Below are positions 4,668 to 45,389 of a DNA stretch of 47,591 bases, piece after piece. The stretch lies in IMG/VR virus record IMGVR_UViG_3300045988_142058; one strand, 5' to 3'. The position numbers were made by a program, and so were the translations under genes. Position 1 is the first letter of the stretch. Every line of letters starts with the position of its first letter. The notes under the pieces are model-generated. The model saw nothing but the letters and a program-made list of their open reading frames with translations, had not been told where the DNA came from and did not search any database. Origin of the DNA: a virus. Its lineage: Duplodnaviria > Heunggongvirae > Uroviricota > Caudoviricetes.

Positions 4668-5669
4668 TTAATACCCATTAATTACTCTTCGGATATCAAT
4701 CGAGGTGGTATAACCACTAACCCCAATTGAATGCACAGCTTTCGATATAAGATATTTTCCAGAAAATGAACCGAATCCGTCCAGATTTATAGTTACACCA
4801 GCTACCAATCTGGTGTCTCCAACCAATACTAAAGATCCGGTATTTTGATATCTATTTTTAAGCCGCAAAGCAGCCTTTGCCTTACGTTTTGCTTCATCTA
4901 AATTAGCTACCAGTTTTCTTATCTTAAGATTCGACCCTTCTTCTACGGATGGATCTACCCAAGTATACGAAAGCGACTTTCTTTTTTTAGGTACGCGATA
5001 TTTGCACGTGCAACTTTTATACAAATCTGTAGATTGTGTGCTAAAGCTATATCTGATTATCTCATCAATACCTAACGTAAGCGTAGCGATAGGATCTTTT
5101 TGCTCAAACATCTCTTGAGCAAATATTATTAATTGGCTATCAGTGACCTTTAACGACAACCCTTCATCCTGGCAAAGTCGATGGAGAAATTTTAAATCGC
5201 TTTCCTCCATTTGATCTTCACGCGCATAATATGGATTACTATCACCATCAATAAGAAACAACAGTTCAAGGTTAGCTAATTTAGCTATAGAAGTTGCTAT
5301 ATCTTTAAGAGTTGTTTTTTCCCATGCATTACTTTTTAAATCACGTCTAATGCCTGATGAAACAGGAACAGAAACAGCAGTCACCTCAACAACAGAAGGT
5401 GGTCCAGAGCAAGTTATGCCATCTACCTGGAATTTCCCGCACTCAAGGACGATTTGATTTATAGGCTTAAAGCTCAAATCAATAAAATCACCCTTTTTAG
5501 GTGTCCAGTCTCCAGACCATTTCCCATCATCATTTTTTAATATAATAGAAATATCATCGACCTGACCATCTTCATTATCTGTATAAGACATTGACAAAAC
5601 ATCAGGTGACATATGAGCGGTAATATTTACATTCTGATATATAACATCAAAAAGCGTTTTACGTAACAC
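4668..5669 (-). CDS. Tail protein, P2 gpD-like
   Basis: 333 aa; follows tape measure and gpX-like gene as in P2-type tails. Confidence 0.5.
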   Translation of the reverse strand: MLRKTLFDVIYQNVNITAHMSPDVLSMSYTDNEDGQVDDISIILKNDDGKWSGDWTPKKGDFIDLSFKPINQIVLECGKFQVDGITCSGPPSVVEVTAVSVPVSSGIRRDLKSNAWEKTTLKDIATSIAKLANLELLFLIDGDSNPYYAREDQMEESDLKFLHRLCQDEGLSLKVTDSQLIIFAQEMFEQKDPIATLTLGIDEIIRYSFSTQSTDLYKSCTCKYRVPKKRKSLSYTWVDPSVEEGSNLKIRKLVANLDEAKRKAKAALRLKNRYQNTGSLVLVGDTRLVAGVTINLDGFGSFSGKYLISKAVHSIGVSGYTTSIDIRRVINGY

Positions 5670-18816: not shown

Positions 18817-19368
18817 TTATTCTTCCTGCTTAATAAATCGGGATTCCTGGAGCGCCTGAAGCGCAAAATTAATCTCGTCTTCAATAATGCGTTCGATCTC
18901 CCTGGCTGTTTTGCCTTCACAACGGGGAGCTGCTCTTGGAGCAATACTAAATAAGCGGCTACGCAATTCATTAGCTGCCAGAAATGCATCATCCCTGACC
19001 GCATCTTTAGCGATGAGAGAGCCTTCCTTTTCTTCAAATTCAAGGCGTTTCAGCTTTGCCTGATAAATTTTTTCTGCGGTCTTAGCCTTGTTGAATTGCA
19101 CCGCAACACCGGAAGTACCACCAGCTAATCCGGCATCATCAGCGGGTAACTCTGGTTGTTCCGAAGATATCCCATGCCCTCTTTTTCCATTTTCAGCAGA
19201 TACCTCACGGCCAACCTGTCGGCTCGCTTCATAAGCCGCACTGGCTTTATCAAAATCCAGCTTGCCGCTTTTCAGCACTGGAATGCGACCGGAACGACAG
19301 AGCTTCGTAACCATTGCCGGAGAAATACCTTTCCGGCGGGCAAACTCTGACTTACTGACGATGACCAT
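18817..19368 (-). CDS. Terminase small subunit
   Basis: First ATG at 19368 (track TTG at 19377); N-terminal HTH SKSEFARRKGISPAMVTKL. Confidence 0.6.
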   Translation of the reverse strand: MVIVSKSEFARRKGISPAMVTKLCRSGRIPVLKSGKLDFDKASAAYEASRQVGREVSAENGKRGHGISSEQPELPADDAGLAGGTSGVAVQFNKAKTAEKIYQAKLKRLEFEEKEGSLIAKDAVRDDAFLAANELRSRLFSIAPRAAPRCEGKTAREIERIIEDEINFALQALQESRFIKQEE

Positions 19369-19958
19369 TACTTGCAACCATTAGCAAGATACTGAACAAA
19401 TCCCTCATGCGTTTCATGCGCGTCGTGGTACTGACGATAAACATCCAGCAACAATGCAATTTCCATATCCGTCGCGGGAATACGTTCTTTATCAATAGCC
19501 AGGTACTTAATTTGAACAACAGGGGAAGAATTATCGTCTTCTTCCTGCGGCTGTTCATCGCTTAACATTTCGTCAAGCTCTGCATCATTAAACCCAAGCA
19601 GATCAATATCAAAATCATCATCCATTAACTCTTTGACTTCTTCGGCCAGAAGCTGCATATCCCAGCCAGCATTTAAGGCCAGCTTGTTATCTGCAATCCT
19701 GTACGCCTTCTTCTGTTTTTCAGAAAGGTTACTCAACCGAATCGCCGGAACTTTATCCATTTCCAGAATTTCGGCTGCTGCAAGCCGACCATGCCCCGCA
19801 ATCAGTTCATTCTTTTCATCGATCAGCACAGGATTAGTGAAACCGAACTCACGGATACTGTTCACCAACTGTTCAACCTGCTCATCTGAATGAGTCCGTG
19901 AATTTTTGGCGTATCTGAGCAGCTTACCGACTGGTAAATATTCGATTTTTAGAGCCAT
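19368..19958 (-). CDS. ParB-like nuclease domain protein
   Basis: 196 aa; ParB N-terminal motifs (NPVLIDEKNELIAGHGR, QKKAYRIADN); paralog of 22625..23248. Confidence 0.75.
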   Translation of the reverse strand: MALKIEYLPVGKLLRYAKNSRTHSDEQVEQLVNSIREFGFTNPVLIDEKNELIAGHGRLAAAEILEMDKVPAIRLSNLSEKQKKAYRIADNKLALNAGWDMQLLAEEVKELMDDDFDIDLLGFNDAELDEMLSDEQPQEEDDNSSPVVQIKYLAIDKERIPATDMEIALLLDVYRQYHDAHETHEGFVQYLANGCK

Positions 19959-26129: not shown

Positions 26130-26205
26130 TGGTGGCCCCTACCGGATTTGAACCGATGACCGTGCGATTATGAGTCGCCTGCTCTAACCACTGAGCTAAG
26201 GGGCC
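26130..26205 (-). tRNA. tRNA with CAU anticodon, tRNA-Ile2 (lysidine)-like, CCA encoded
   Basis: 76 nt cloverleaf GGCCCCUUAGCUCAGUGGUUAGAGCAGGCGACUCAUAAUCGC...GGUUCAAAUCCGGUAGGGGCCACCA; 7-bp acceptor stem; resembles E. coli ileX from memory; elongator Met not excluded. Confidence 0.8.
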
Positions 26206-33559: not shown

Positions 33560-34071
33560 TGATGGCCCCCGTCATTTCTGGTGCTTTTCACCGTGCGGCT
33601 TCTTAAAAACCTGCCATCACGAACAACAGACACTTCTCGTTTACCCAACCTCATTTCACGGCGGTAACATTCAGAAAATGCCTCGTCCGGCATCATATAA
33701 ATGCGACGCTTCGCCTCCGTATCCAGAAGGGAACGGCTTGGGGTTACATATAAGAACGACTCATCAATAGGGACAAAACCACGAGCAAGAATTGCTGGCA
33801 GAATACCAGGAAGAACGCAGAAAACAGCTCCACGATGCAGCAACATCTGGTACTCCATGACCTCCGTAATCCCCGTAACGACTGTTACGGTGTCACGTCT
33901 GTTACGGCTGGCAACCAGTCGCTGCACACCTCCAATTTTCTGCTCTACAGATAGACGTTTGCTATCGTTATCAATATGATCGATAACAAATCCTTTAATC
34001 GTTTGATCAAGGTAGTGCACCACCTGCGATTGAATCTGGTGATTATCACCAAAGAAGGCCAGAATCATCAT
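33556..34071 (-). CDS. Hypothetical protein
   Basis: 171 aa, second gene of Cro-side operon. Confidence 0.35.
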   Translation of the reverse strand: MMILAFFGDNHQIQSQVVHYLDQTIKGFVIDHIDNDSKRLSVEQKIGGVQRLVASRNRRDTVTVVTGITEVMEYQMLLHRGAVFCVLPGILPAILARGFVPIDESFLYVTPSRSLLDTEAKRRIYMMPDEAFSECYRREMRLGKREVSVVRDGRFLRSRTVKSTRNDGGHQ

Positions 34072-34562
34072 TCCTCAAGCCTCCCAAGTGCTGAACGCCG
34101 GGCGTTGCTAATCTCCTTATGAATCAGCTCGATATCGCTGGAATCTTTATTCTTAAGCTCCAGCACAGTAATCGCATCACGAACCTCTGAAACGGTTACG
34201 TGTGAGTGTTTCCAGCGAGCAATGAATCGCGGACCGCGTAGATTGCAACGCTCCGCAGGCATCCCCAGCTCAGAGAAAACCGCTTTCAGCCTTGATAAGC
34301 AGTTAACAGGGAGATTCCCTTTGATCTTGTTCTGCCGAACCGATGTGCCATCGCTACGCTGGCGCTGACGCTCGGCAAAATCTGCCGCCCATTGCTGGAC
34401 GTTAATCCGGCCTTCCGAATACGCCACCAGCAGCGTCAGGTTATCCGCACGAGGGAATCTCTCGAAGCGATACCAGGCACCAATCAGTGATGACGTAAAG
34501 CCAAACTTTCTGGCAACACCAATTTGGCCTCCATTTTCGTCAACCCACTCCTGAAAGGTCAT
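34068..34562 (-). CDS. Cro-like regulator (HTH N-terminus with ~100 aa extension)
   Basis: 164 aa; divergent from CI-like gene across operator region. Confidence 0.5.
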   Translation of the reverse strand: MTFQEWVDENGGQIGVARKFGFTSSLIGAWYRFERFPRADNLTLLVAYSEGRINVQQWAADFAERQRQRSDGTSVRQNKIKGNLPVNCLSRLKAVFSELGMPAERCNLRGPRFIARWKHSHVTVSEVRDAITVLELKNKDSSDIELIHKEISNARRSALGRLEE

Positions 34563-34581: not shown

Positions 34582-34596
34582 ACCACGATATGTGGT
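34582..34596. promoter_or_regulatory. Operator ACCAC-gatat-GTGGT in cI/cro intergenic region
   Basis: Perfect inverted half-sites, 5-bp spacer. Confidence 0.6.
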
Positions 34597-34602
34597 ATTA
34601 AA

Positions 34603-34617
34603 ACCACATATCGTGAG
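34603..34617. promoter_or_regulatory. Degenerate operator ACCAC-atatc-GTGAG
   Basis: Adjacent to first operator; right half imperfect. Confidence 0.4.
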
Positions 34618-34684: not shown

Positions 34685-34699
34685 ACCACTAAATGTGGT
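34685..34699. promoter_or_regulatory. Operator ACCAC-taaat-GTGGT near cI start
   Basis: Perfect half-sites, 38 bp upstream of cI ATG. Confidence 0.6.
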
Positions 34700-34736: not shown

Positions 34737-35393
34737 ATGAAAAGCAACGACGAGAACATCAAGAAAGAAATAGGTCTGCGCATTCAGACTCTACGGAAAC
34801 AATCCGGCATGACTGCCGGAGATCTCCAGCAAGTCACTGGAATAGGCTTAAGCACCTTGCAGAACTATGAGGCCGGATTAAGACAACCATCTATACCTGC
34901 CATCAAGAAAATCGCGCACGCCCTGAAAGCATCAGCGCCTTATATCGCGTGCTTAACAGATAACCCGTTCCCACCCCAGAATACTAACGCTCCTGTTATT
35001 CCTGGGCTTGTAGCTATAAAAAATGACATAGCATCGCACGCCGGAGAAAAGCCAGTGCTGGCGATAGAACAGGAGATTCTACGAAGCAAGAACATCAACC
35101 CATCGTCTCTGTCAGTTCTCCAGAGCAACGATGAGTTAATGTCACCAACAATATCCCCTGGCTCCCAAGTCCTGATTAATACAGACGATACAGAGATTCA
35201 TGAGGGGATCTATGCCCTTGAAGACAGAAATGGCCTGGTTGTTTTGAGGCACTGTAGAGTCATACCGGGTGACAATGCTGTTATGCTGTCAACCGAAAGG
35301 GATGCTGAAATGAACACTAAGCATCTGAATAACGAGGAATTTAAGCGTTATAAAGTTCTGGGCCGCGTAGTTAGTGTTGTCAACTGGTTATGA
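34737..35393 (+). CDS. CI-like repressor (HTH + LexA/S24-like C-terminal domain)
   Basis: 218 aa; N-terminal HTH (LRKQSGMTAGDLQQVTGIGLSTLQNYEAG); C-terminal S24-like fold. Confidence 0.8.
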   Translation: MKSNDENIKKEIGLRIQTLRKQSGMTAGDLQQVTGIGLSTLQNYEAGLRQPSIPAIKKIAHALKASAPYIACLTDNPFPPQNTNAPVIPGLVAIKNDIASHAGEKPVLAIEQEILRSKNINPSSLSVLQSNDELMSPTISPGSQVLINTDDTEIHEGIYALEDRNGLVVLRHCRVIPGDNAVMLSTERDAEMNTKHLNNEEFKRYKVLGRVVSVVNWL

Positions 35394-35435: not shown

Positions 35436-35450
35436 ACCACATTTTGTGGT
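35436..35450. promoter_or_regulatory. Operator-like ACCAC-atttt-GTGGT downstream of cI
   Basis: Perfect half-sites; after hairpin 35401..35416; could also act as weak terminator. Confidence 0.45.
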
Positions 35451-35485: not shown

Positions 35486-35860
35486 ATGGAATTACATACA
35501 GCCAATAAAAACGAAACTCTGATCACTGCTGGAATCGAAATCCAAGCGTTGAACATAGCGATTGAGTGTATGTTATGCCAAATCATTGATAATGAGAAAG
35601 ATATCGACTGGATATCATCTACCCTTCATCTTGCTTACGAGCAAAAAGCCTGCCTCAAAACAGCCTTACAATACGATGTGCCTTCTGTATCAAAGCTGTG
35701 CCAGTCATTGATGGCATATAACAGAGCTATCATTTCTGTATGCCTCATGATTCTCGATGAGAATACCCCTCTTAGCGACCGCTCAGAAGCAGCTCTAACC
35801 CTCTCACGTAAACAGCGACAGCTAGCAAATCAACTGATATCAACGATAGCTGACCTCTGA
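35486..35860 (+). CDS. Hypothetical protein downstream of repressor
   Basis: 124 aa, AAGAGG RBS; operator-like site D upstream. Confidence 0.4.
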   Translation: MELHTANKNETLITAGIEIQALNIAIECMLCQIIDNEKDIDWISSTLHLAYEQKACLKTALQYDVPSVSKLCQSLMAYNRAIISVCLMILDENTPLSDRSEAALTLSRKQRQLANQLISTIADL

Positions 35861-35884: not shown

Positions 35885-36010
35885 ATATGATTATAGTTTT
35901 ATATAATTATATAAAACGCTTTTCATCCGCCAAAAAGTTGGTTATGCTTACCTCGTTCTATAAATATAGATTTATAGAATTATATAACCAAACACATGGA
36001 GTCTCGACAA

Positions 36011-36664
36011 ATGACTATCTCTGTAGGTATTTTCAACGGAAAAGGCGGCGTAACCAAATCAACAATTGCCCGTGCTTTAGCAGTTGCTTATGCAAAGGCT
36101 GGCTGGAATGTATGCCTGATCGATATGGATGTGCTTAACGGAACGGTAACGCGTTGGGTACAACGCAGAATGGCCAACAATATCGAACCAGCAATCGCGG
36201 CGCAGCCGTGCGGCACACCATCACAAGTCCAGAAAATCATCGAATCAGAAGTATACGACCTGGTTATCGTCGATGGCGGTGCCTACGCATCTGAATCAGT
36301 ACCGAAGCTCTCTGAATTTCTGGATATGGTTATTTTGCCAACCAGATTCTCTACCGATGACCTGGAAACCACCGTTAACACAGCTCATGGCATCGTTAAA
36401 AAGGGTGTGCCAATCAAGAAAATTTGCATGGTGTTCTCAGGCGCGGCTGAAAACGAAGCCGACTACATTGAAGCCCAAGAGTACCTGGCTAATACGCCAT
36501 ACTTTGTTGTCGATAAGTACATTCCCCACAAGCCAGCTCTGAGCAAAGCTCAGGATAAGGGCTTAAGCCTCATTGAGTGCTCATACGTTGCGCCACGCAA
36601 AAAGGCAGACGACGTTATTCAGGGGATTATCAACCAGCTTGAGGCTCTGACTACTGCCGCGTAA
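36011..36664 (+). CDS. parA: ParA-like partition ATPase (small, type Ib-like)
   Basis: Deviant Walker A FNGKGGVTKST; start at second ATG with GGAG RBS. Confidence 0.8.
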   Translation: MTISVGIFNGKGGVTKSTIARALAVAYAKAGWNVCLIDMDVLNGTVTRWVQRRMANNIEPAIAAQPCGTPSQVQKIIESEVYDLVIVDGGAYASESVPKLSEFLDMVILPTRFSTDDLETTVNTAHGIVKKGVPIKKICMVFSGAAENEADYIEAQEYLANTPYFVVDKYIPHKPALSKAQDKGLSLIECSYVAPRKKADDVIQGIINQLEALTTAA

Positions 36665-37178: not shown

Positions 37179-37200
37179 AAAAAAGGCCCCCGAAGGGGCC
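37179..37200 (-). terminator. Intrinsic terminator for small-peptide transcript
   Basis: GGCCCC-cgaa-GGGGCC followed on minus RNA by UUUUUU; 7 nt after peptide stop. Confidence 0.6.
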
Positions 37201-37206
37201 TAATCG

Positions 37207-37329
37207 CTACTTGCTGCTAATGTTTATCGTCACATTCAGAGCGTTATCAGTAATCTTCCAACCCTCCCCATGTGGCGTAAACAAAGCTCCAGTAACAACG
37301 ATAAAAATACACATACAGTATTTTTTCAT
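37207..37329 (-). CDS. Small hydrophobic peptide (40 aa), candidate type I toxin
   Basis: MKKYCMCIFIVVTGALFTPHGEGW...; AAGGG RBS; intrinsic terminator immediately after stop; upstream leader carries 15-nt antisense target. Confidence 0.4.
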   Translation of the reverse strand: MKKYCMCIFIVVTGALFTPHGEGWKITDNALNVTINISSK

Positions 37330-37622
37330 TGTATGGCCCTTACAGGCCGTTTCACGGCATCCCCACCGACGAAAACAACGCGAGAGCAAGCACGGCTGCT
37401 TGTGCTTGCATGTACGGCAACAGGAAATCCTCCCCTAAAGTCGGTGCCCGGGTGCGAATCGGCGGGAAGGTCCACAGGTATTTTACGATTATTTTAAGAT
37501 TAGTAATAGGAAAGAAATTAAACGAAAAAAACAGTTTATTTTCACAAAATCAGTAACCTACCCACAATCTGTGAGTTTGCTGACACAACAAGAACCACAA
37601 TTTTTTGATGTATAATAGTGGA

Positions 37623-37772: not shown

Positions 37773-37787
37773 CCCACGCTATGTGGT
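37773..37787. promoter_or_regulatory. Near-operator CCCAC-gctat-GTGGT in antirepressor leader
   Basis: One mismatch to consensus; between sRNA terminator and ant operon. Confidence 0.3.
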
Positions 37788-37900
37788 TGTCTCTGTTAAA
37801 ATCCCGCCGTATTGACATGAATGCGCCATTGGTGGACACTTTCCGAGCCGTAGCAAAATCTACGGTCGGGATTAGCCTCCTGAATAACACGATGGCGCAT

Positions 37901-37921
37901 ACCGCGTTAGCGGTTTTTTTA
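37901..37921 (+). terminator. Second intrinsic terminator in antirepressor leader
   Basis: ACCGC-gtta-GCGGT followed by TTTTTTT. Confidence 0.45.
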
Positions 37922-38082
37922 TGCGTAGAGCACTGTTACGCCCAAATTATGGTGGGTCGTACAGGGGCGGAGAAATCCGCGCCGGTTCGTCATTGTGTCC
38001 GGTAAGGCTAACCCTGTACGGCTCACCACCATTTGATTAGCCTCGAATGGCGGTGATAGTTCCATATACTGGAGATATCACA

Positions 38083-38274
38083 ATGACAAACCTACCCCAT
38101 GACTATTACGTCAACCTCGTAAAGATCCTTCTCAAGAAAGCCTCATACGCCGATAAATTCCGCCTGGCTGAAATCATCGAGCGCGAAGCTATGCGCATCG
38201 CCAGCAACGATAACGCTGTTTCTGACGCAAAAATCTCCCTCGTAACCAAAGTAGTTATGGGAGGTGCAAAATGA
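38083..38274 (+). CDS. Hypothetical small protein upstream of antirepressor
   Basis: 63 aa, GGAGA RBS, stop overlaps antirepressor ATG. Confidence 0.4.
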   Translation: MTNLPHDYYVNLVKILLKKASYADKFRLAEIIEREAMRIASNDNAVSDAKISLVTKVVMGGAK

Positions 38275-39452
38275 AAACGCTTCCGACCGTTAACACCCTA
38301 CAGCCTATCCTGCATAACCAGCTCCCCGTTATCACTACTGAACTACTGGCGCAATTGTATGGAACCGAGCGCCAACGTCTGACAAACAATTTCAATAGAA
38401 ACAAGGAACGTTTTATAGAAGGTAAACACTTTTTTAGGATAGAAGGTAAAGAGTTACGAGAGTTGAAGAACAAAAACTCTTTAAGAGTTCCTGTGAGAGT
38501 AGTTAACGAACCATCTTTAAGAGGGTTACAAATTCCCCCGAAAGTTCGCTCCCTCATCCTCTGGACAGAACGCGGGGCTGCACGTCACGCCAAAATGCTT
38601 GAAACTAACCAAGCGTGGGATGTGTTCGAACGGCTGGAAGACTGCTATTTCAACCAGAACGCACAAACGGCCGCGACCGTTACCGTCTCGCCAAGCAATG
38701 CTCGTGAGGTTGTCGATACGCTCAACGCCAAACCGATGTTTTACATTAAGGTGTGCAATAACGAGCCACTCACAACCTCAGCCGATGTTGCCCAGGCATT
38801 CAGCACCACAAACAATTCCATCGTTATGGCCATCGATGCGTTACGCATTCCTCGCACAGCTGCGGCGCGTCATTTCTTTAAAGAGCAACGACCGTTGGAA
38901 GGAAGCGACCGCGAAATAACAATCTATCGCATGACAAAAGACGGATTTACCTTGCTCATGGAGAGCATCGACGGTCCAAGCGTGAAAGATATCAAGCTGG
39001 CCTACATTGAAGCCTTTAACGCTATCAGCAGCGTGTTAAAAACACAGTACGAGCGTGATCTGGCTAAACGACTGTACCAAGAAAAAACGATTATCCGCGC
39101 GGCAACAGAGCATAATCGGCTATTAACGGAACCGAACTACAGGAAGGAACTAATCAAGGAGTTTGACAAGGCAACAGGGAAAACCAAAGCGGCGCTAAAT
39201 CTGCCAGCAATGACTCAGGAAAATGTGATATCAGCCTTACTTCTTGATCTGCTCAGAAACGCCAGAGCACTTATCAGCTTTGACGAAAACCTGAATCCTC
39301 AGCTCAAGCTACTACCACCGACAGGCAAAGTAGTCGACCAAGCTGATCACAACAGCATACTCAGCGTACTGGATGCAAACCTGCCAGCCAAGACACTACA
39401 GGATCTGATAAAAACATGTGCTGATAAGCTGGCACAGAAAAGCAGACCATAA
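38271..39452 (+). CDS. Antirepressor (ORF6N/ANT N-terminus, Rha-like C-terminus)
   Basis: 393 aa; N-terminal LPVITTELLAQLYGTERQRLTNNFNRNKERF; terminator after stop. Confidence 0.75.
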   Translation: MKTLPTVNTLQPILHNQLPVITTELLAQLYGTERQRLTNNFNRNKERFIEGKHFFRIEGKELRELKNKNSLRVPVRVVNEPSLRGLQIPPKVRSLILWTERGAARHAKMLETNQAWDVFERLEDCYFNQNAQTAATVTVSPSNAREVVDTLNAKPMFYIKVCNNEPLTTSADVAQAFSTTNNSIVMAIDALRIPRTAAARHFFKEQRPLEGSDREITIYRMTKDGFTLLMESIDGPSVKDIKLAYIEAFNAISSVLKTQYERDLAKRLYQEKTIIRAATEHNRLLTEPNYRKELIKEFDKATGKTKAALNLPAMTQENVISALLLDLLRNARALISFDENLNPQLKLLPPTGKVVDQADHNSILSVLDANLPAKTLQDLIKTCADKLAQKSRP

Positions 39453-43674: not shown

Positions 43675-44523
43675 TTAATGTTGGAGTGATTTCCAGGTCT
43701 TTCTTAACCTGTTATAACGCTGCTCAACGAGGGATCGTAAATATGCAAGGTCAGCTCCAGGATACATGCCATCAGCAAATTCCTGGCTAACCTCTCTAGT
43801 GATTTGATGACGAAGTTCGGCCTCTCCCTTTTCCCGAACAAGACGCGCAGCTCTCTCCGCTGCTTTCTGTTTTGCCTTTATCTCTCTGGCCGTCTTCCTC
43901 TGACGCCATACATTCTCCATCTGCTCCTGAATAACAATACGCTTATAATCAGCCTCCGTTATCGCTTTTTTAAGCCGTTCGCTATTCTTCGCATTGAAGT
44001 AATTAAGTTTCTGGCTAACCGCACGTCTCCATGCTTGTTCAGTAATACCAACGGTTTCCAGCAGTTGATCACGAATCTCTATTTTCGCTGGCCAATACTG
44101 TTTATTCACCCGATCCCAGCGACGTTCATAATCAATAAAACCTAACTCTTTCAGTTGCGACAACGCCCTTGTACAGCGCGTTATAGACTTGTTCCCAGCT
44201 TCGGATACGGTAGACAGGCCGCAAAAATCAGCCAACGCCTCAGCACTGGCCAGAACCCGCTTAGAAATGATGTTTACATGGTGCAAAATCGCAGCAATCA
44301 CAGCATTAATTGCCCGACGACGATGCTCGTTTATCCGGCGTTTCCGCTCTGACGGTTGATTAACGTAGAACGCAACCTCACACGTAAGATCACGACCATT
44401 AATGCGCTGTAAAGCATCAGATAACACCAGCGGCAGCTTGTGCGTATGGTGCTTTGGAGGCTGGAACTCCGGCGACAAATTACAAACGTAAGCTGAACGT
44501 AGAGACGGCATTGGTCTATCCAT
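43675..44523 (-). CDS. repA: Replication initiator RepA, IncFII RepA1-like
   Basis: ATG at 44523 (MDRPMPSLRS...); block ...ALADFCGLSTVSEAGNKSITRCTRALSQLKELGFIDY... matches IncFII RepA1 pattern CGL-T-S-AG--SITR-TRAL--L-ELG-I-Y (from memory). Frame open upstream to 44685. Confidence 0.8.
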   Translation of the reverse strand: MDRPMPSLRSAYVCNLSPEFQPPKHHTHKLPLVLSDALQRINGRDLTCEVAFYVNQPSERKRRINEHRRRAINAVIAAILHHVNIISKRVLASAEALADFCGLSTVSEAGNKSITRCTRALSQLKELGFIDYERRWDRVNKQYWPAKIEIRDQLLETVGITEQAWRRAVSQKLNYFNAKNSERLKKAITEADYKRIVIQEQMENVWRQRKTAREIKAKQKAAERAARLVREKGEAELRHQITREVSQEFADGMYPGADLAYLRSLVEQRYNRLRKTWKSLQH

Positions 44524-44535
44524 ATGTTCGCTCTT

Positions 44536-44650
44536 GCGTCCACGGAAAACCAACGTATAATGGGAGTTGTCGAGGCGCCCATGGATATGTTTGTTGGTTT
44601 TCCGTGGATGTCGCAAGAAGCCCGCAGATTTATCTGCGGGCTTTTTGTTT
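44536..44650 (+). ncRNA. Candidate CopA-like antisense RNA in repA leader
   Basis: Plus-strand intrinsic terminator (9-bp stem 44620..44628/44633..44641 + TTTTTGTTT) antisense to repA leader; 16-bp stem-loop 44539..44608. 5' end not defined. Confidence 0.4.
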
Positions 44651-44690
44651 CCATATCTGGTCGTTTTCCAACCAGACACCCACAATCGTA

Positions 44691-44705
44691 ACCACGTTAC
44701 GTGGT
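44691..44705. promoter_or_regulatory. Operator-type ACCAC-gttac-GTGGT in repA leader
   Basis: Same half-sites and spacing as immunity operators; ~100 nt downstream of putative repA promoter. Confidence 0.5.
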
Positions 44706-44811
44706 TTTAAGAGAACTCTACCACAACACTTTCGGTCATGCACGAAGTCTCTCGCTAATCGAACGATAATCCACCAGTAAAAGGATCTAAATCGGATCTC
44801 GTGTTGCGAGC

Positions 44812-44839: not shown

Positions 44840-44861
44840 TGATGAACATAACAACACTCCT

Positions 44862-45389
44862 TTATTCTGGTTTGTCTGGCCATTCGGGGTTTGCTGTGTC
44901 CACGCGGCTGACAAGAACACTGTAGCGTTCCCATGCTTCCAGTCGTGTGCGTTCCTCGTCTGTTGCCATATTCAGCCTGACAGCGCGTTCCAGCGGCTGG
45001 ATGACTGATTCAGCTTCGGAAAGCAATGCGGCCTTTTGTGATTCGGCTTGTTGTTGCTGTTCGTCTGCCGTATAAATCCGTTTAACTACAGCTCCATCCT
45101 TAAACATCCACTTTCCTGAATCATCAGCGCGGCGGTTGGCTGTAATATCAGGAACCTCAACGACGCTAAAACCTTCAGGGTTAAGCGTGGAGGCATCTTT
45201 AGTGATGGCGACAATAATATTATTTGCATCGTAAACAATCTTTATTGTGTCTGGCTGAAAGTTTTTCACTTCCTCATACCAGTTTTTTCCGTCCTCAGAG
45301 TAAAGCCAGATAACTCCGTGTTTCTTTGTTAACTCATACTGTTCCAGTGTTTTAGCGTTACCCGCTTTTATGTTCTTTAAGTGCATCAT
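44862..45389 (-). CDS. Tail fibre assembly protein (Tfa-like)
   Basis: 175 aa after second fibre gene; C-terminal ...[13 protein letters not shown]. Confidence 0.6.

Follow-up and report, generated by a model that had tools for sequence, protein, structure and literature searches.

A predicted immunity-type operator in the repA leader of a circular phage-plasmid with an IncFII_repA-family replicon

In phage lambda, cI and Cro gate the initiator genes O and P via PR (as in lambda-dv plasmids), and these genes lie in the early operon beside the immunity region. In phage P1, the operators of the C1 repressor are dispersed and include Op53 at the lytic replicon repL, and a C4-type antisense RNA is found together with an antirepressor; the P1 plasmid replicon (repA with iterons) is not controlled by C1, whereas the separate lytic replicon is. 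The P1 operators are asymmetric 17-mers, and their repressor is unrelated to that of the element described here. In N15, the prophage repressor is inactivated through an antirepressor and not by self-cleavage. The N15 repressor CB regulates copy number and binds two OL sites, which overlap the promoter predicted for repA (PMC4488713), and the preliminary description of the present DNA was correct in citing N15 as a precedent for a prophage repressor that regulates repA. On the plasmid side, CopB of R1 represses PrepA in a dose-dependent manner while CopA acts on the leader, and derepression on entry aids establishment (PMC5717011).

The DNA analyzed here (47,591 bp in full, referred to as the window) is a ~48-kb circular phage-plasmid, with genes for a contractile tail, for cI-like and ParA-like proteins and for an antirepressor, a divergent early operon, a toxin-antitoxin pair and, transcribed from the minus strand, repA. 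The circular records that are nearly identical to it are E. coli plasmids 47-50 kb in length, each classed as non-mobilizable, and three near-identical records are Yersinia-infecting phages (vB_YpM_39, vB_YpM_41 and vB_YpM_44). The phage-plasmid family is common: its repA leader was found in 71 of 5,426 complete E. coli genomes, plasmid-borne in every case, and ATCC 25922, with its 48.5-kb plasmid CP009073, is among the E. coli strains that carry the family. In PLSDB, the 61-62 non-mobilizable plasmids that carry the leader are also those that carry the immunity region, and no heteroimmune family member was found there. A scan of genome contigs with a leader anchor gave 0 matches, and pSLy3, an SSU5-type element of 114 kb, was rejected as a member of the family. 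The searchable literature contained nothing specific on this phage-plasmid family, its accessions, its replication control or a repressor-controlled IncFII-like repA.

The replication initiator gene repA (43675-44523, minus strand) encodes 282 aa from the ATG at 44523, with an alternative ATG at 44511. A longer annotated start is excluded by indels, not multiples of three, that lie upstream of 44523 in near-identical relatives; the 326-aa RepA annotation of the public records starts too far upstream. The replicon had been described initially as IncFII-type. This stood only at the level of the protein family, IncFII_repA (PF02387, E 4.1e-44) being the sole Pfam domain of RepA, and three further comparisons qualify it: i) RepA is ~30% identical to R100 RepA1 over 191 aa; ii) tblastn of R100 proteins against the window recovered no homologue of CopB/RepA2 (best E 4.4) or of Tap (best E 2.0), and the gene upstream of repA is a tail-fibre assembly gene; iii) the Rfam CopA model gave no match at the leader even at E<=10, generic hairpin or terminator matches below threshold being all that was returned there. 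As for a Tap-like leader peptide, a conserved ATG at 44582 opens an ORF of variable length that runs across the repA start and has no clear ribosome-binding site.

The leader nevertheless carries a candidate CopA-like antisense RNA gene (44534-44653, plus strand). Its promoter (TTGCGT-16-TATAAT, 44534-44561) is conserved, and the RNA (~44565-44653, ~88 nt) consists of a 5' tail, a stem-loop I, the loop of which is U-rich and 15 nt long, and a strong terminator hairpin, with a predicted fold of -41.2 kcal/mol (z = -6.1). Moreover, five pairs of the terminator stem show compensatory changes across lineages. The RNA is thus well supported as a predicted functional analogue of CopA-type copy-control RNA. 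Its loop (~44585-44600, plus strand) is hypervariable even where relatives are 95-99% identical elsewhere, a pattern that resembles incompatibility diversification, and RNA lengths range from 82 to 95 nt. The sense leader also contains a 15-bp inverted repeat (CCACGGAAAACCAAC ... GTTGGTTTTCCGTGG, 44541-44608, minus strand) around the complement of the antisense 5' end, which finishes 17 nt before ATG 44523 and may gate RepA translation; both of its arms change between sublineages, with pairing apparently preserved.

Two promoter-like elements precede this region on the repA strand. The best sigma-70 match, P1 (TTGACT-16-TATGAT, 44839-44812, minus strand), agrees with the consensus at 10 of 12 positions, has a predicted start at ~44805 and is the single promoter-like site that a consensus scan finds upstream of the palindrome under study. 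It resembles R100 PrepA (TTGAGT-17-TAGATT, then GATCGTTT). Equivalents are present in a Salmonella relative (L003, TTGACT...TATCAT) and in a Citrobacter freundii relative (L015, TTGACG-16-TAGAAT), and the -35 is not kept in a Yokenella-type relative (L010). The second element, P2 (GTGCAT-17-TGgTAGAGT, 44715-44743, minus strand, predicted start ~44708), is a candidate extended -10 promoter. P2 falls below the threshold of the consensus scan; its hexamer positions, 17-bp spacing and TGnTAGAGTTC are kept in both lineages described below and in every relative, with a variable spacer sequence, and it is this conservation that makes P2 a candidate promoter. Just downstream of P1, two GATC sites 11 bp apart (44798-44795 and 44787-44784, spanning 44784-44798 on the minus strand) are invariant alignment columns in both lineages, and R100 PrepA likewise precedes GATCGTTT; involvement of Dam or SeqA at this pair is possible.

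The palindrome itself, ACCAC-GTTAC-GTGGT (ACCACGTTACGTGGT, 44691-44705), lies in the non-coding leader; on the repA strand the extended site reads TAAAACCACGTAACGTGGTTAC (44688-44709). It does not overlap P1, being ~100 nt downstream of that match, and starts 9 nt past the -10-like hexamer of P2, which corresponds to ~+3 to +18 of this candidate promoter. The end of the target of the CopA-like antisense RNA is 36 nt further downstream. The initial placement of the site between the putative repA promoter and the RepA start was therefore upheld, the stretch from P1 to ATG 44523/44511 being non-coding. Two further calls in the leader were rejected: a plus-strand terminator-like structure at 44687-44710, the pairing of which is specific to E. 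coli, is not conserved and has no T-run in lineage 2; and a second operator at GTGGT 44726-44722, which lacks a left half-site and is not found in Salmonella.

Within the 47,591 bp, ACCAC-N5-GTGGT occurs exactly four times (at 34582, 34685, 35436 and 44691), against an expectation of 0.03 per window in shuffled sequence; four or more copies were found in none of 100 shuffles. The three copies outside the leader flank the cI-like gene (34737-35393, plus strand). Two of them (34582-34596 and 34685-34699) lie in the 174-bp gap between this gene and the divergent early gene, where a degenerate site (ACCACATATCGTGAG, 34603-34617) is also found. The other (35436-35450) is found past the terminator hairpin of cI, in front of orf124 (35486-35860) and of the ParA-like gene (35996-36664). 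Each of the four exact sites is extended on one side by AAA, to AAAACCAC. When a position weight matrix (PWM) was trained on the immunity-region sites alone, with the leader site left out, the leader site scored 23.7 bits and was the top match outside the immunity region, while the maximum scores of 100 block shuffles had a median of 12.8 and a highest value of 18.3. A matrix built from the immunity sites of a Salmonella relative likewise placed the window's leader site first outside the immunity region. Sequence, coordinates, exact matches and PWM score thus agree with the original claim that ACCACGTTACGTGGT has the half-sites and spacing of the immunity operators.

The gene that these operators surround encodes a cI-like immunity repressor of 218 aa with an N-terminal Cro/C1-type helix-turn-helix (HTH) and a C-terminal S24-like domain. 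Pfam returned HTH_3 (E 4.5e-11) and Peptidase_S24 (E 0.0018, below the curated cut-off), and profile matches in PDB were to Cro/C1/SinR-type HTH proteins. The catalytic Ser and Lys of S24 are replaced in every family member (DELMSP and GRVV in the alignment), so the repressor is probably not self-cleaving and depends on an antirepressor for induction. An antirepressor operon is present (37847-39452, plus strand), in which isrK-like and C4-like RNAs recognized by Rfam are followed by a small ORF and then by the antirepressor, with ORF6N (E 1.3e-21) and Phage_pRha (E 1.6e-12) domains; induction probably proceeds via this protein. A possible further operator with one mismatch (CCCACGCTATGTGGT, 37773-37787) is flanked by a terminator and by the promoter of this operon. 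It scored 21.1 bits, above the maxima of 100 of 100 shuffles, and no counterpart was found in the Salmonella relative L003.

We consider it likely that the palindrome is an operator of the element's own cI-like repressor, which would limit repA transcription and fill the role of CopB. The analysis shows the identity of the motif, its enrichment, conservation and covariation with immunity type, and its place with respect to repA and the antisense RNA; from these we infer which protein binds the site, the sign and size of its effect, the promoter used and the physiological role. In a lysogen, repressor at 44691-44705 would lower repA transcription by either or both of two routes: i) the bound protein would occlude the start region of candidate P2 (site at ~+3 to +18); ii) it would be a roadblock to transcripts from the stronger-looking P1 (site at ~+100). 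Since the repressor gene is carried on the plasmid, repressor dose would follow copy number, adding a second, CopB-like negative loop. The antisense RNA would control repA post-transcriptionally and, no CopB-type gene being found, the repressor would supply the other loop. When repressor is absent, as on fresh infection, or inactivated by the antirepressor, repA and the lytic genes would be derepressed together and replication would rise. The antisense RNA could dominate control, which would make the transcriptional effect small.

An effect on repA transcription is not the only use that the repressor could make of the leader site: it could bind there for looping or pairing with other operators, for titration as a copy-number sensor of the lysis-lysogeny switch, or for a block to transcription that comes in from the antisense side. 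Such uses would suit the ~100 nt between the site and the best promoter match, the single site in place of the two at the N15 promoter, and the dispersal of the operators, of which one stands at the par operon and a further one possibly at the ant operon, those of the immunity region and par being ~9-10 kb away. On the other hand, every relative has the site within the repA transcription unit, right behind the conserved -10-like element; a bound dimer would affect repA transcripts regardless, and nothing specific favours looping. We therefore regard these uses, in place of transcriptional control of repA, as unlikely.

The placement of the site was followed through relatives of the same immunity type (lineage 1). 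In Salmonella (L003 and L009) and Yokenella-type (L010 and L029) relatives, RepA is 81-86%, the repressor 61-66% and the leader ~77% identical to that of the window. These leaders keep the half-sites and the AAA flank (AAAACCAC...GTGGTTA), while the 5-bp spacer is changed (GTAAC, GTTGT and GATGT) and the ~45 nt downstream of the site are largely unalignable. Among the lineage 1 repressors, the N-terminal HTH domain, recognition helix included, is near-invariant and the C-terminal half drifts. When leaders were retrieved with an antisense-promoter anchor (GCCTCGACAACTCCNATTATA) that lies ~130-190 bp away and is unrelated to the palindrome, 36 of 36 contained an operator-type site of either of two types.

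A chance control came from a tail gene, within which an exact ACCAC-N5-GTGGT is found in some relatives (L004, 2261-2275; L005 and L006, 1547-1561) without the AAA flank. The corresponding positions of the window (5389-5403) have one mismatch; with the window copy mutated, incidental, unselected matches are evidently not maintained. Two RepA homologues were set aside as comparisons. The closest RepA outside a phage context (63% identical, L019) belongs to a conjugative plasmid with two HTH genes upstream, and its leader, of the classical CopA type, is not alignable and hence uninformative on the site. An Arsenophonus RepA (P0026, 33% identity) has an unrelated context.

The second type of leader site belongs to a heteroimmune group (lineage 2: L014-L018, L020, L021, L033 and L036), which comprises Citrobacter freundii (L015) and metagenome members with the gene order of the window, a RepA ~60% identical to that of the window and a repressor 29% identical. 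The recognition helix reads IPRSTIQNYE in lineage 2 and IGLSTLQNYE in lineage 1. Around the L015 repressor gene (18894-19517) the sites are of the form ACTACA-N4-GWG, and six of the eight ACTACA hexamers in its 20.8 kb fall within 870 bp of the immunity region. In the L015 leader, TTGACTACAAAACGTAGC follows directly after TGcTAGAGTTC, in the alignment column of the window's palindrome. This leader site has TTGACTACAAAA in common with one L015 immunity site, and it is the top match outside the immunity region for a matrix made from the L015 immunity sites alone. An independent contig (L020, immunity region 78% identical) repeats the ACTACA pattern. As a reciprocal control, the window contains 21 ACTACA hexamers, none in the immunity gap and none in the leader, and the window's matrix gives the lineage 2 leader site -0.2 bits.

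Thus the leader site appears to switch type together with immunity specificity, in one clear covariation event; since two immunity lineages were found, the covariation amounts to essentially one evolutionary switch. The right half-sites of the lineage 2 immunity operators are degenerate (GWG), so that covariation is demonstrable only in the left half (ACTACA and flank). Enrichment, conservation and this one covariation event together back the identification, as it was first put forward, of the leader site as a predicted immunity-type operator of the prophage repressor.

An RNA hairpin would likewise survive the symmetric C>T and G>A change of the leader, and the palindrome could accordingly be read as an RNA or single-strand DNA hairpin that serves processing, stability or folding, its likeness to an operator being incidental. 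A stem of 5-6 bp with a 5-nt loop can form in the window, lineage 2 keeps a 4-bp stem, and variation in the spacer (the loop) is tolerated, all of which such a hairpin would accommodate. However, the stems are short and weak, and a hairpin leaves it unexplained why the stem together with its unpaired flank equals the immunity half-site of each lineage (AAAACCAC in one, TTGACTACAAAA in the other), which makes this reading very improbable.

Another protein of the same specificity could bind the leader in place of the cI-like protein, for instance RepA or, as a lytic repressor in the manner of Cro, the protein encoded by the divergent early gene. Cro and cI of lambdoid phages use common operators, and the gene that opens the divergent early (lytic-side) operon (34068-34562, minus strand) encodes a 164-aa protein with no known domain. 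However, the cI-like HTH is the only recognizable sequence-specific DNA-binding domain beside the operators, and the recognition helix of this protein is near-invariant in lineage 1 and different in lineage 2. Autoregulation by RepA would moreover leave unexplained why the immunity and par promoters have identical sites. We rate a different binder as slightly less probable again than a hairpin. Chance occurrence without function, for which the exact match in the relatives' tail gene is a reminder that incidental matches do occur, is effectively refuted by the 0.03 copies expected, by retention of the site through ~23% leader divergence and by its switch with immunity type.

With the element's own repressor as the probable ligand, the locus may be set against the known systems. 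It resembles N15 and phiKO2, where cB/cro-type operators stand upstream of the plasmid replication gene and tie immunity to copy number, as is predicted here from sequence comparison; inactivation of the repressor via an antirepressor, also predicted here, is a second likeness. The N15 plasmid is, however, linear, its RepA is large and multidomain, and two OL sites lie over the promoter, whereas the window is circular and has an unrelated 282-aa IncFII_repA protein, an antisense-RNA leader and a single site downstream of P1. The resemblance to N15 is thus one of mechanism and not of descent.

With R1 and R100, the window would have in common transcription of repA possibly from two tandem promoters, a dose-dependent repressor, encoded on the plasmid, that would act on the downstream part, and a CopA-like RNA directed at the leader. 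It differs in the lack of a copB or tap homologue, in that the predicted repressor is a phage immunity protein encoded ~9 kb away, and in the position of the operator, which is in the leader here and over the -35 of PrepA in R1/R100. As in phage P1, operators are scattered and include one at a replication function, and a C4-type RNA with an antirepressor is present; unlike in P1, it is the one recognizable replicon of the window that carries the operator. As in lambda, the immunity repressor is predicted to gate transcription of the initiator, but here the operator is a separate one and belongs to an independent replicon of plasmid type.

A broader role for the repressor is suggested by the operator before orf124 and the ParA-like gene. 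The position of this operator is kept in lineage 2, with an ACTACA-type site at 18820-18832 of L015, and the repressor may control the partition operon via 35436-35450. Among 20 early and plasmid-region proteins, many of them functionally uncharacterized, no other replication initiator was recognized (one partial primase-like match was obtained), and RepA may on that account serve lytic replication too. It is conceivable, though we hold it only tentatively, that the immunity repressor is a single master regulator of lysis-lysogeny, replication and partition, with the IncFII-like RepA/oriR as the only replicon, which would run away lytically on inactivation of the repressor by the antirepressor.

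If the predicted control is real, an immunity operator has replaced a CopB-type repressor in a plasmid-type, antisense-RNA-controlled replicon and couples the two lifestyles of the phage-plasmid; the principle known from N15 would then apply also to an element that is circular and whose replicon is unrelated. This suggests that placing the maintenance replicon, and perhaps partition, under the immunity repressor is a recurrent solution among phage-plasmids. The heteroimmune lineage 2 offers a natural specificity-swap control.

Several other features of the element were observed. In lineage 2 (L015, 9516-10004; L014 and L017), an extra 162-aa ORF with weak similarity to IncFII_repA sits between the antisense RNA gene and repA and ends at the repA start; either a duplication of the N-terminal part of RepA or a long leader ORF may account for it. 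Upstream of repA, homology to the other family members breaks at 44843, 4 bp before the -35 of P1, and in relatives the break region (44843-45389 of the window) is occupied by a hin/pin DNA invertase and by other tail-fibre cassettes, so that the replicon module directly adjoins a host-range region of shufflon-like character. Rfam matches at gathering level were obtained for a ryfA RNA (143 bits, 37179-37475, minus strand), which overlaps three mutually overlapping 75-aa ORFs on the plus strand, and for a tRNA at 26133-26205 (minus strand).
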